This document shows, piece after piece, positions 3,001 to 9,000 of a DNA stretch of 64,000 nucleotides. Numbering within the stretch: the first letter of the stretch is position 1; every line of letters starts with the position of its first letter. Origin of the DNA: Escherichia coli O127:H6 str. E2348/69 (lineage in GTDB: Bacteria; Pseudomonadota; Gammaproteobacteria; Enterobacterales; Enterobacteriaceae). The stretch lies in NCBI RefSeq assembly GCF_000026545.1, contig NC_011601.1. One strand, given 5' to 3'. The position numbers are program-made.

Positions 3001-6000
3001 ATACCGATAACAGAGGCCGCTATGACTGTAGGCAATGAGAGGATAAATATTATCCAGAACGTTTGCACACATAATTGAACAAAATATCCAGTATCCATCA
3101 ATTCACCACCAACAGAAATTCGAATAATTTTTGCCAGCCTCCAACAAGAATGAATAACAAGATCTTAAAAGGAATCGAAATTGTTACTGGCGATACCATC
3201 ATCATACCCAAGGCCAATAAGATATTGGAAATGATCAAATCTATCGCAATAAAGGGTAAATAGAGCAAAAAACCTATCTTGAATGCAGCTTCAAGCTGCC
3301 CCATCGTGAAAGCCGGTAACAGTATAAATAGAGAGTCTTTTTTTAAGATAGTTTCATTACCCAATTTTTTTTGAGCTGCACGTTCAAAAAACTCTACATT
3401 GTCTTTCTCTGTATTTTTTTCTAAAAAACCGCGATATGGTGATAATATTTTCTCATCAACTTTTTGAAAAAAATCAGAGTCGGTATAATTGATTGGTTCC
3501 TGAGAAATATTATCATTTATCTGTAATATTATCGGAGACATAATAAACATTGTCAGTATCAAAGACACTGATGTTAGCGCCATGTTTGGTGGTACCTGTT
3601 GAATGCCTAATGCGTTCTTCAATATCCCCAGTACAATAGAAATTTTCAGGAATGAAGTACCAATAACAACAAATATTGGCAGTAATGATAACAGAAAAAA
3701 TACAATAATTAAAAATATTGGCTGTGAGCCAATGGTCATTAATTGAGACATATCATCATTCCTGAATAATGCTAAGATAATTATCTTTAAATGAATTCAA
3801 TAAAATACTTATTTGCTCTAATGGGTCTAAAGTTATTCTAATATATTCATTTTCTATTATAATTTTATTATGCGGTGTGTTTGCATCATTAATAAGCTGT
3901 ATATTGTTGGCCTCGCCAGGATCAAGTTTAATGTCTGGATTTTTAGTGATCTTAATAGCTCCGACAATATTGTTATTAGATAGAGTTTCCCTTACAACTT
4001 CATTAAGTAAATCATCCCAATTAATTCTTGATGATGTATCTAAAGAATGTAATGCATTAGTCAGTGACAAATGAACCTTATTCATTATGTCCTGCATTAA
4101 GACCAACTCGATAGCCTGGATATCTTTAACCCATTTTATCGATTGGTTAACCTCTTTATCTAATTTTATTTTATTATTTTTTCGAATCCTTTCTCTCATT
4201 GCAATCATTTTTCTGGCAATTTTTTTTCTGGATTCTATCTTTAATTCTTTCGATTTCCTCCTCGCCCTCAGTAAATGTTCATATGTTTTTTTTCGAGCCA
4301 GTTTGATAATATCATCAGATTGAATAATTTCCTGTAACTTATCCTCTGGTATGATATCTTCTGTAAGCACTAAATCAATTTCTATATTTTTAAATTCATA
4401 AAGTTTCATAAGGCAATAAAATTTTATTAAGTCTGTTAAGAAATAAATCATTAATATGAGTTGGTTTTATTTCTCCACTTTTCGGTAAAAGATATTTGAC
4501 TATGGTCCATAAAGGATTATCAGCAAATAGCCACTCCAAATTTCCTGCACCGTATTTTATTAACTCAGCACAAAACCGTTCTTCACCATATTCTGGTTTA
4601 CATTGCCCTCCCTGCCAATAGAATGATAACTGCTTCACATTTTGATATCCTATCTCTCTAATCAGAGTTTCTCGATATAATCGTGAGAAAATATAATCAG
4701 GGCATTGAATGTCAAATAATGCACTACTTAGAGCAAGCAATCTTATTTTCCCAATTGACTGATATAAAAAACCTTCCTTATTTATGTCAGATAATTCCAC
4801 ACCAGAAATTTTATCTTGTATCTCCTGACGCAATATCTTATTGAGTTGATTACGAGTAGAACTAGTTTCTCTTAAACGCCGAAAACTGACCTGATTGACA
4901 CCGGTTAAATCACCTAGCCATTCATCATGAACCATCATGATTGGATAATTAATTAATTTATAGTAGTTATAGTCTATTTTATTAAAAATTGTCATACTAT
5001 TTTTCTATTATTTCTATTCCGTTGATTCATTGTTGATTGGCTTTTAGATCTTGCTGGACTCAGTGTCTCTATTAGTTTTTCAATCTTACTTAGGGCAGAA
5101 TCATATAATTTTCGCTCTTCACCATATGTGTACCCCTCAATTAATTTGTTTAATTTTTCTGCCGCCTGAGGATCTGTTTTTGCTTTTTCACTTAACTCAT
5201 TAACGCTTTCTTTTACGACATCAAATTCGGCGATTATTTTTTTTATCGCCTCAATTTCTGATCTTATTTTTTTATCTAATAGTTCTTTATTTCTTGTTTG
5301 GCTCACAATACTCATCCTCTATTTATTATTAATCCTGATTCGCATTATCTCTATAGTCCTAATTGCCGCATCACACGCAATGAGCAGTTCCTTTGCTTCA
5401 TTGTAGGTAACTTTATCCAAAGGGTGTTTCATTTTTTCATGGATTTCGTTCTTTTTGTCGTTTATTTTTTCAATAAAAACATTTGCGGCTTCTTTATTTT
5501 TTATTATTTCGTCTTCCAGCTCAGTTATCGTTATCATTTAATTATTTTATGTTAAATATTTTTCAGCGGTATTATTTCTTCTTCAGTGTCCTTCACAAGA
5601 AAATCTTCTTTCTTCATTCCATTCAACAGTGCTTCTTTAAGCCAGCGTGGCTGTCGGCCTACGCCCGACCAGGTCTGCCCTTCTTCATTGCGGTAGTAAA
5701 CACCTTTCGATGAGTTCCGGCGAGCGAGTCCATCATCAGGCACATTAGTATATCCCAGCTCTTGTAAGGTTATATTGTAATAAGTAATCTGCTTCTGAAT
5801 CGACTCAATTACACTTTGAACTTCCTGCTCTCGCAGTCGCTTTGCTTCCTGCTGTAGAACTGCAATTTGCTCTATAAGCTGAATGTATGGACTTGTTGTA
5901 TGTGAATTAGTTTCCATATTCATAATAAATAATCTCCGCATGCTTTAATATTTTAAGCTATTAGCGACCTTATCCTTATCAGGAAGGACAACAATTAATC

Positions 6001-9000
6001 AAATGATATAAATTATGTGAGATAACGTTTATCTATCAAATTAGGACACATCTATTTCATCAAACAACCACCTTAAAATGTTATTATTCTCTGTTTTCTA
6101 ATGTGTAAAATACATTATCATTAAATGTCAACAAAAAAAATCATATATTTTTAAAATCCATTTAAAATCAATGATATAGAAGAAAACCATCTCGTTAACA
6201 AACGACTTTAATAATTGCATTTCCATTTAGTTAAGCGTTTCTCTTTATAAGATAGATCTCATTGCATAAACAAATAAAACAGAATAAAAACCAAGCTGAA
6301 CCGTTTCACTATACTCTACTTAATTCGAGTTACAGGAAGGCGGCAAGCGAGTGAATCCCCAGGAGCTTACATAAGTAAGTGATTGGGGTAAGCGAACGCA
6401 GTCGCAGCACATGCAACTTGAAGTATGACGAGTATATATATCTATTAGCTGTCTCCCGGACATAAGCTACAGCCAGCACTAACCTGGAACGGGTGCATTA
6501 TAAAAAGGAACAAGGGACAAATAGCTGAACAAGTAACCGCGTTAGTCTCTTCCCGCATAACCGTACCATTCGTATTAAGAAGTATTGCCCATATCCATTC
6601 GGCGAAAGAGGATCTGCCATACATCAAGTCCGTTTTACTTGGCATCAGATCATCGCCGTCATTAACTCTGTTAAAGTCGGACAAACGATTAGCAAGATCT
6701 GTGATTCAAAAGTGCATAGCGCTAAGGTGGGACTGGTTACAAATTCATTAACCCTGTTCTTTGTCGCACCTATCGATCGGTGTAATGCCACAACAGGTTT
6801 ATGTTAATCAGAACAATGCGCCCCTCTATAAAGAGAATTCTTTGATAAGGCAACTTGAAAAGGGAAAGCTAACTGATATCAATGTACCACTTTAGTAATC
6901 ATCACATTATATACAGGCCAAAATAAGTTTCCTGAAAGCCAGTATCTCTAAATCAATCATTAATGGTATATTTTATCGTCACAATAAAAAATTATCTAAA
7001 TTCTATTACTTATGTAAATAAGTACAACCTTTTCATAGACACAAAAACTATGGCTGACGCATCACTTGCAATCAATTATCCATCATTAGATTAATATTTT
7101 CACTTATTTTTCAGAAGGTAAAAATAACTTTCTATGCGTTTAAAACACCCGCTATAAATATCTTGTATATTATTGACACTATATGATGCTATATGATACT
7201 TGTTGCCAAATTGTTCATTACAAACCAGATAGGAGAATCTCTCATGATAAATGGACTTAATAATGACTCCGCATCTTTAGTTTTAGATGCTGCAATGAAA
7301 GTTAATTCTGGGTTTAAAAAAAGCTGGGATGAGATGTCATGCGCTGAAAAGTTACTTAAAGTACTTAGTTTTGGTTTATGGAATCCAACGTACAGTCGTA
7401 GTGAAAGACAATCATTTCAAGAGTTGTTAACCGTTTTAGAGCCTGTATATCCACTTCCCAATGAATTAGGCAGAGTATCTGCTCGTTTTTCAGATGGCTC
7501 ATCCTTAAGAATTTCCGTCACTAACAGCGAAAGTATTGAAGCCGAGATTCGCACACCAGATAATGAAAAGATTACTGTGCTCCTGGAGTCAAACGAACAA
7601 AATAGGTTATTACAATCTTTACCCATCGATCGCCACATGCCATACATTCAGGTTCATCGTGCCTTATCTGAGATGGACCTGACTGATACTACCTCAATGC
7701 GCAATCTACTTGGTTTTACGTCAAAACTATCAACAACCTTGATTCCTCATAATGCTCAAACAGATCCGCTTTCCGGGCCTACACCATTCAGCTCTATCTT
7801 TATGGATACATGTCGAGGACTCGGCAATGCAAAGCTTTCACTCAATGGTGTTGATATACCTGCAAATGCACAAATGTTGCTTCGCGATGCACTAGGACTT
7901 AAAGACACACACTCATCACCTTCCCGGAATGTTATAGATCATGGTATTTCTCGCCATGATGCAGAGCAAATAGCAAGAGAAAGCAGCGGCAGCGATAATC
8001 AGAAAGCTGAAGTTGTGGAATTTTTATGCCATCCAGAAGCAGCAACGGCCATATGCTCGGCTTTCTATCAATCTTTCAATGTGCCAGCCTTAACGTTGAC
8101 ACATGAAAGGATCTCTAAAGCCAGTGAATACAATGCGGAAAGATCGTTAGATACACCTAACGCTTGCATTAACATCAGTATCTCTCAATCATCAGATGGA
8201 AACATTTATGTTACCAGCCATACCGGGGTTCTGATAATGGCGCCAGAAGACCGCCCCAACGAGATGGGCATGTTGACGAACAGGACTTCTTATGAAGTGC
8301 CGCAAGGTGTGAAATGTACAATCGATGAAATGGTAAGAGCGCTACAACCAAGGTATGCCGCATCTGAAACGTACTTACAAAACACTTAAAATAAAACTTT
8401 ATTAATCAAAACCAATAATAGAAATCACACCCACAATTATTAACAATTTATCCTGAAGTTAATTACAATCAAACAAAAATATTTGTTCTGCAAACAATTT
8501 ACAGTAAATAGAGAAAATGAAAAGAAAACCATTAATTGCATTTTTCATTGCGATATTTATTATGCTAACCATATTAATATTATTTCCATTTAATTGTACT
8601 TACAAAAAATCACCTCAAGAACACTCACTTTCATTTATAAAACAATTACCAAATACGGTGAACTTATCATCTCTTACTTATAATAAAGAGGATGATTTCC
8701 TGTATGCCACCCAGAATAGCCCTGCACAGCTACTTAAAATAACCAAAAGTGGCGACATCATGGACAGAGCCCCGCTGCCTTTTATCTCTGATGCTGAAAC
8801 AATTGAACACATACAAGGGAACATTTTTGCTGCAGTAGACGAAAAGACTTCTGAACTATTCTTTTTTACAGTTACAAAAGATATGCATATCTCCTTTCGA
8901 AATAAAATTCAGTTAGAAAAATTCAATAAAAAGAATAGAGGGTTTGAAGGGCTGGCATGGAAAGCAGATGATCGGATGCTGTTTGTCGCAAAAGAAAGAC

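Follow-up and report, generated by a model that had tools for sequence, protein, structure and literature searches.

The attaching-and-effacing virulence island of pathogenic Escherichia coli has the gene ler as its master switch, which raises the question of which promoter, within very AT-rich upstream DNA, drives its transcription in the enteropathogenic strain (EPEC) E2348/69 and how long a leader the transcript carries. A 64-kb window (the whole stretch of DNA analysed, 64,000 nucleotides) was examined, and features lie on the minus strand unless a sign is given. The sequence upstream of annotated ler had 100% identity to EPEC E2348/69, and the same-strand gene directly 3' of the promoter was ler, the first gene of LEE1 (RefSeq, identical E2348/69 locus), followed in the operon by escE, cesAB, and further genes through to escR and escS. 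The region is almost certainly the LEE1 P1 promoter together with the 5' leader of ler. Both are already known (published 1999–2012); this analysis adds precise coordinates, corrects the Ler start and the length of the leader, and tallies the core in 696 genomes plus E. albertii. Coordinates, sequence identity, the mapped start, and strict core conservation were derived here, and P1 activity, its regulators, and what the minigene does were taken from the literature.

The first-pass annotation had described TTGACA, an 18-bp spacer, and TACACA upstream of ler, and these coordinates agreed with the published P1 elements. The −35 hexamer TTGACA (6131–6126) matches the consensus at 6/6 positions and is followed by the spacer TTTAATGATAATGTATTT (6125–6108), a reported target of the activator GrlA that contains the direct repeat TAATG-A-TAATG, an extended −10-like TGnTAATGT (6120–6112), and a G at −18 (6113) sensed by sigma-70 residue R451 (PMC3130263). 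The −10 hexamer TACACA (6107–6102) corresponds to positions 97–102 in the numbering of Islam, was named as the P1 −10 by Islam 2012 (PMC3262186), and matches TATAAT at 3/6 positions with A rather than T as its last base. From the −35 to the start the core was identical to the enterohemorrhagic E. coli (EHEC) LEE1 promoter printed in Singh 2011 (PMC3130263). Comparison with EHEC O157:H7 P1 (Sperandio et al., 2002; Islam et al., 2011/2012) extended the identity from upstream of the −35 through +5, with the minigene likewise 42 nt from the −10 and the same ler ribosome-binding region, whereas EPEC has one more T before the −35 and an A-to-C change at +6. Adjoining the −35 is an A/T tract (6132–6160) including a run of eight T (6140–6133), which we infer to be UP-element-like.

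The transcription start had been predicted beforehand, as a test, at about 6095 and 6–8 nt past the −10. Two published EHEC numberings both gave 6095 (+1 = A), 7 nt after the −10 hexamer, as an alignment transfer from EHEC rather than an EPEC experiment. One route used the LmiA motif, which spans −115 to −99 relative to the distal start in PMC7667037, carried through the O157:H7 locus onto the window; the other used the spacer G at −18 (PMC3130263). The LmiA site itself, TTAAAGTCGTTTGTTAA (6195–6211), is an exact match to the EHEC DNase I-protected site (PMC7667037) and varies in other LEE lineages in the alignment. The P1 start is somewhat flexible, by a base or so, in this AT-rich DNA (Islam 2012; PMC3262186). 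The distance of about 170 nt to ler proposed initially also held, being 172 nt from 6095 to the ATG at 5923, although the bound of 5942 set at the time had presumed an ATG at 5941.

Judged by its hexamers P1 is unremarkable. The description "near-consensus" suits the −35 (6/6) and fails for the −10, which lacks the final T, and for the spacer, which is 18 rather than 17 bp. Despite 9/12 hexamer matches overall, P1 fails the −10 rule of a generic sigma-70 consensus scan, which demands a T in the sixth hexamer position, and was absent from the list that the scan returned. P1 agrees with a weak sigma-70 promoter dependent on activators rather than with one near consensus. Within 5924–6330, three other distinct minus-strand sites equal or beat it on hexamer matches. 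One could suppose that the hexamer pair arose by chance, as such matches commonly do in AT-rich, horizontally acquired DNA, and is functionless; two counts lean that way: promoter-like sites in 5000–7500 were not enriched (11 vs. 10.4 expected from shuffles), and a TTGACA paired with a −10 of at least 3/6 occurs at five places in the window. This explanation has a negligible probability, since the P1 core surpasses every other block of the regulatory region in conservation, occurs in every LEE-positive genome searched and in E. albertii, and has a function supported by published mutational and reporter data, the mutagenesis already refuting a chance origin. The exact arrangement TTGACA-N15–19-TACACA occurred once in the 64-kb window, at P1. 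The promoter is distinguished by its position, conservation, and published mapping, and not by its hexamers.

Conservation was assessed in a 369-column alignment of eight LEE1 sequences representing about four sequence types. Its longest invariant run was a 28-nt block at 6139–6112 (permutation p about 0.017) that takes in the seven T nearest the −35, the T-run being seven or eight long depending on lineage. Across 6139–6099, 40/41 columns were invariant compared to 60–70% in the flanks; the −35 and −10 hexamers did not vary among lineages, the spacer was 18 bp in each of them with a sole variable column (A/G at 6111), and the same core was found in E. albertii. Among complete E. coli genomes carrying the LEE, 696/696 contained the 40-nt P1 core, 462 of them with 100% identity and 234 with a single mismatch. 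A scan of genome contigs with a 21-mer from the minigene gave no match because other lineages differ in minigene sequence, while a 20-mer from the ler ribosome-binding region recovered E. albertii and one chance match in a Bacillota MAG but not Citrobacter rodentium.

The conserved spacer bears on which −10 element is productive in EPEC. The overlapping TGnTAATGT (6120–6112) lies wholly within the invariant block and, if it rather than TACACA were the productive −10, the start would move some 10 bp upstream to near 6105, with TTGACA/TACACA just one of two competing promoters. The same −35 can also be read as TTGACA-16-TTTACA, and two reviews describe overlapping LEE1 promoters, one giving promoters P1A and P1B at EPEC LEE1 with P1B dominant and IHF-dependent, and the other a promoter overlapping P1 in EHEC. 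That second review calls the EHEC promoter cryptic, by the published numberings the major start falls 7 nt beyond TACACA rather than near 6105, and expression rises 3.3- to 7.5-fold with the mutations 99T, 101A/T, and 102T, which affect three TACACA positions (PMC3262186). An EPEC start near 6105 is consequently unlikely, and TACACA with a start at 6095 is the preferred assignment.

The leader runs from 6095 to 5924 (172 nt, AT-rich), compared to about 170 nt reported for EHEC (PMC3262186) and 167 nt in the O157:H7 alignment; the difference from the latter comes with an extra GATAAG that alters the region of the EHEC P2 promoter and gives EPEC a tandem GATAAG GATAAG (5969–5980) where O157 and O145 hold a single copy. 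Within the leader lies the two-codon minigene ATG AAA TAG (6060–6052; Islam positions 144–152), which is preceded by the Shine-Dalgarno sequence AAGGTGG (6074–6068) and a back-up TTG start (6063–6061). The minigene is translated in EHEC and required for full ler expression and cell attachment, its mutation halving the former and abolishing the latter (PMC3262186). Its two-codon frame and AAGG were kept in all eight LEE1 sequences and E. albertii, with AAA replaced by AAG in some variants and a 1-nt deletion turning TAG into TAA in PK8241. Folding of a 196-nt leader RNA gave an MFE of −31.3 kcal/mol (z = +0.38; 125/200 shuffles folded at least as well), and an Rfam search at a permissive threshold found no family in the leader. 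By these two tests the leader gave no sign of being a structured regulatory RNA (riboswitch, attenuator, or thermometer). A sub-threshold ERIC-like Rfam match was observed upstream of the leader.

Downstream of the minigene, the functional ler start codon was placed at 5923–5921, giving a Ler protein of 123 aa (MNMETN...) by the RefSeq CDS, a placement that PMC3262186 confirms with lac fusions and by reference to published N-terminal sequencing. The longest open reading frame begins at an in-frame ATG further upstream (5941–5939; Islam positions 258–260), which was ruled out as the ler start: a fusion at these positions gave only background expression (PMC3262186), and the N-terminal sequencing favors 5923. 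The ler ribosome-binding region is covered by the invariant 26-nt block ATATTAAAGCATGCGGAGATTATTTA (5951–5926), the second-longest invariant run in the alignment. Ler carries the Pfam H-NS C-terminal domain (E = 4.9e-12). ORFs in the unannotated stretch 6470–7190 gave no Pfam match.

A promoter inside the leader could in principle account for most ler transcription and leave P1 minor. Two candidates were weighed, the first being an EHEC-type proximal P2 with a start near 5959. Such a P2 has been described in EHEC, its start being 35 nt upstream of the ler ATG in the numbering of PMC7667037; the extra GATAAG in the EPEC P2 region counts against this candidate. The second, the promoter-like TTGATA-16-CATAAT (6039–6012), has 10/12 consensus matches, better than P1, with its hexamers inside the invariant blocks 6042–6031 and 6029–6013, but CATAAT becomes CATAAA in the lineage of the dog strain and E. 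albertii, and the spacer varies between 16 and 17 bp. The minigene lies upstream of both candidates and its mutation lowers ler expression and abolishes attachment; transcripts starting at P1 are therefore required, and a predominantly internal origin is highly improbable. A further speculative proposal would treat the core as two overlapping promoters competing for RNA polymerase, with starts near 6095 and 6105 and the choice set by GrlA or IHF, or, separately, would treat TTGATA-N16/17-CATAAT as an internal promoter not previously described or as a downstream site at which H-NS/Ler nucleate. Two overlapping promoters may explain the strict invariance of the 41-nt core, spacer included, yet the proposal is quite doubtful. 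Overlapping LEE1 promoters have already been reported, and only the internal leader element could be new.

The tract 5942–6200 has a G+C content of 24.7% against a window mean of 49%, a value reached in only 0.3% of 259-bp windows, which bears out the earlier description of extreme AT-richness; the anticipated H-NS silencing and the action of positive and negative regulators on it are likewise documented in the literature. Binding of H-NS extends without a break over a 600-bp fragment of the LEE1 promoter and is lowered by Pch, while EPEC LEE1 is silenced by H-NS and dependent on GrlA/PerC. The DNA bound by GrlA lies between −54 and +1; PMC4730234, citing Islam 2011, connects the 18-bp spacer to a MerR-like activation by this protein. 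YhaJ, LmiA (PMC7667037), KdpE, and Cra also bind the LEE1 region, and Ler is said to act on its own LEE1 promoter directly as a repressor and only indirectly, via GrlA, as a stimulator.

In the best-supported mechanism, sigma-70 RNA polymerase engages the perfect −35 and, across a spacer one base too long, the weak TACACA to start at about 6095. The core appears deliberately suboptimal and lies in 25% G+C DNA that, by the published work, is coated and silenced by H-NS, and expression therefore depends on activators. The literature indicates that GrlA works through the 18-bp spacer much as MerR proteins do, that PerC in EPEC or Pch in EHEC breaks up the complex formed by H-NS, that IHF and other proteins bind upstream, that Ler feeds back on its own promoter, and that the translated two-codon minigene tunes ler translation in cis.

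Binding sites for some of these proteins were also sought directly. Work by Bhat in 2014 reportedly located the AATT motifs of the Ler operators near −111.5 and +65.5. With +1 at 6095, the AATT sites of the window do not match these positions, and Ler operators were left unassigned; the downstream AATT fits its number only with +1 near 6105. Motif scans for IHF and H-NS returned only sites with one or two mismatches, at 6166–6178 (+), 6008–5996 (−), and TTGATTAATT at 6002–5993, which were not counted as evidence.

In comparison with known systems, P1 and its leader partly resemble three of them. Like MerR-type promoters, P1 has an over-long spacer with its activator, GrlA, reported to act within it. 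The spacer of MerR-type promoters is 19–20 bp in contrast to 18 bp at P1, and P1 is without a real dyad operator, having just a 5-bp ACATT/AATGT pair and the direct repeat; the literature on the P1 spacer (PMC4730234) also reports no dyad. GrlA is CaiF-like and stands outside the MerR family, and the resemblance is one of mechanism rather than family membership, leaving P1 outside the MerR type. With H-NS-silenced island promoters such as those of the other LEE operons, P1 shares a G+C content of about 25%, H-NS occupancy over about 600 bp, and dedicated activators, although Ler is the anti-silencer at the other operons whereas GrlA and PerC/Pch are the main activators at LEE1. The LEE1 minigene is not an attenuation-type leader peptide, and its leader is without significant RNA structure; it resembles instead the minigenes or uORFs of bacteriophage lambda mRNA in being a two-codon translated ORF with its own Shine-Dalgarno sequence and a cis effect on the next cistron.

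Comparison of the region 5900-6500 with the EPEC E2348/69 chromosome (100% identity) and O157:H7 (~98%) supported the proposal of the first-pass annotation that the feature is the LEE1 P1 promoter of ler with its leader, both of which are already known, and the core was that of the published EHEC promoter. The promoter tract was directly followed by ler and then escE, cesAB, escR, and escS of the LEE1 operon (RefSeq annotation), and the Ler ORF contained an H-NS C-terminal domain (Pfam). This overall identification stood, with its details on consensus strength, Ler start, and leader length corrected and a translated minigene added.

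The P1 core on the minus strand included the -35 hexamer TTGACA (6131-6126), an 18 nt spacer TTTAATGATAATGTATTT (6125-6108), and the -10 hexamer TACACA (6107-6102), with TTGACA-N15-19-TACACA occurring once in the whole 64 kb. The G+C content of 5942-6200 was 24.7% compared to a window mean of 49%, and only 0.3% of all 259-bp windows were equally AT-rich. The hexamers, spacing, and extreme AT-richness claimed earlier were therefore real. The T run just 5' of the -35 (6133-6140, minus) was one base longer in E2348/69 and O121 WL1277 (8 T) than in the other lineages (7 T), so that every site further upstream is offset by 1 bp from the core.

The description of P1 as near-consensus was not upheld, as the -35 alone was perfect, the -10 matched TATAAT at 3/6 positions without the final T, and the spacer was 18 bp. 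P1 was absent from the output of a sigma-70 consensus scan, which found 11 promoter-like sites in 5000-7500 versus 10.4 expected from shuffles, and TTGACA paired with a -10 of 3/6 or better was present at five sites in the window. Sites scoring at least as high as P1 within 5924-6330 were TTGATA-16-CATAAT (6039-6012, 10/12), TTAACG-16-TATCAT, and TTTACA-18-AATAAC. P1 would not be picked from sequence alone, and its initial call rests on recognition of the locus. The TTGATA-16-CATAAT site (minus strand), inside the LEE1 leader and closer to consensus than P1, had both hexamers in invariant alignment blocks, with a 17-bp spacer in O121-type sequences and a -10 changed to CATAAA in the lineage of the dog strain and E. 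albertii.

The transcription start was placed by carrying two published EHEC numberings onto the window via an O157:H7 locus. The window was identical as far as +5 to the EHEC LEE1 promoter printed as TTGACATTTAATGATAATGTATTTTACACATTAGAAAA..., in which the spacer G is numbered "-18" (Singh et al., 2011; PMC3130263). TACACA was named the P1 -10 by Islam et al. (2012; PMC3262186), whose positions 97-102 fell exactly on 6107-6102 and in which 99T, 101A/T, and 102T changes raised expression 3.3- to 7.5-fold. The footprinted LmiA motif TTAAAGTCGTTTGTTAA occupies -115 to -99 relative to the distal (P1) start (PMC7667037). These two independent, EHEC-derived numberings agreed on 6095 (A) as P1 +1, 7 nt past the -10, consistent with the predicted start around 6095 at 6-8 nt from this hexamer, although the start is somewhat flexible in the AT-rich DNA of P1 (Islam et al., 2012; PMC3262186).

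The main new evidence on P1 was its conservation in an alignment of eight LEE1 sequences representing about four sequence types (E2348/69, O157:H7, O111, O145:H28, O121, 97-3250, PK8241, and a dog isolate). The 28-nt TTTTTTTGTTGACATTTAATGATAATGT (6139-6112) was the longest invariant run in 369 homologous columns, followed by a variable A/G column at 6111 and the 12-nt invariant TTTTACACATTA (6110-6099). Columns 6139-6099 were thus invariant at 40/41 positions compared to 60-70% in the flanks (permutation p ~0.017), and the spacer was 18 bp in every aligned lineage. The same P1 core was present in the E. albertii type strain. Of 5,426 complete E. coli genomes, 696 were LEE-positive, and every one of these had the 40-nt core (462 identical at 100%, 234 with a single mismatch). 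The initially transcribed region diverged between lineages (TTAGAAAACAGAG versus TTATACATCGGTG).

Spacer invariance may reflect several overlapping demands, including a GrlA target, sigma factor contacts, and an overlapping TGnTAATGT (6120-6112). GrlA binds between -54 and +1 (PMC6094958) and, in PMC4730234 citing Islam 2011, is reported to activate via the 18-bp spacer in a MerR-like manner without a dyad operator, while the spacer base at -18 alters activity via sigma-70 R451 (PMC3130263). The extended -10-like TGnTAATGT (minus) lies within the spacer, as does a direct repeat TAATG-A-TAATG, and would direct initiation about 10 bp further upstream than 6095. It may be the overlapping promoter of reviews, which name a P1A/P1B pair and a "cryptic promoter overlapping P1" (one being PMC6094958). 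H-NS was bound over a continuous 600-bp fragment spanning the LEE1 promoter, with binding lowered by Pch (PMC4764244). In EPEC, the promoter is silenced by H-NS in LB, is mainly activated by GrlA and PerC, and is subject to Ler feedback (PMC5550750; PMC6094958). Other factors acting here are IHF, Fis, Hha, QseA, KdpE, Cra, YhaJ, and LmiA (including PMC6094958; PMC7667037).

The annotated ler start was 5923, giving a 123 aa product with N-terminus MNMETN. The ATG at 5941, which opens the longest ORF, was rejected based on this RefSeq start and on EHEC lac fusions that confirmed the downstream ATG and showed the ATG 18 nt upstream to be unused (Islam et al., 2012; PMC3262186); N-terminal sequencing is also cited there for the downstream ATG. 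The earlier lower bound of 5942 therefore missed the last 18 nt of the leader. From the mapped start to the ler ATG, the leader spanned 172 nt (6095-5924, minus) compared to 167 nt in O157. The 5-6 nt difference was due to duplication of GATAAG, of which EPEC, O111, and O121-type leaders have two tandem copies (5980-5969, minus) and O157 and O145 one. The tandem alters the stretch that holds the proximal promoter P2 in EHEC, where transcription begins 35 nt ahead of the ler ATG (numbering of PMC7667037). The leader RNA had no significant structure (MFE -31.3 kcal/mol, z = +0.38) and no Rfam match.

The leader also contained the minigene of Islam et al. (2012; PMC3262186), with Shine-Dalgarno AAGGTGG (6074-6068, minus) and ATG AAA TAG (6060-6052, minus) with a back-up TTG; translation of this minigene is required in EHEC for full ler expression and attachment to cells. 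Selection on this two-codon frame was supported by the alignment, in which other lineages carried AAG in place of AAA and PK8241 had TAG converted into TAA by a 1-nt deletion. A block of 26 nt at the ler ribosome-binding site (5951-5926) was likewise invariant in the eight sequences. The one exact match of the ler ribosome-binding 20-mer in an ORF of a Bacillota MAG (L010, 13619-13638) is a chance hit, with about 0.5 expected given the collection size.

An ERIC/IRU intergenic repeat was located upstream of P1 at 6309-6440, about 215 bp from the transcription start, with a sub-threshold Rfam match to V_AS5 and a second, diverged copy at 19297-19403. Copies of the repeat occurred in 5425/5426 complete E. 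coli genomes (median 6 matching places per genome), and the one upstream of LEE1 was limited to the EPEC/O157/O111/O145-type island, being absent at O121-type, dog-strain, and E. albertii loci. The 720 bp between this element and espG (6470-7190) had no annotated feature in any record and small ORFs without Pfam match; its EPEC versus O157:H7 identity was 99.4%, above the 97.5% of the LEE1 regulatory region. TTGACA-16-GATACT at 7173-7200 (plus, 10/12) is a candidate espG promoter that ends 44 nt before the RefSeq start at 7244, and the longest espG ORF opens earlier, at 7193, overlapping this site.
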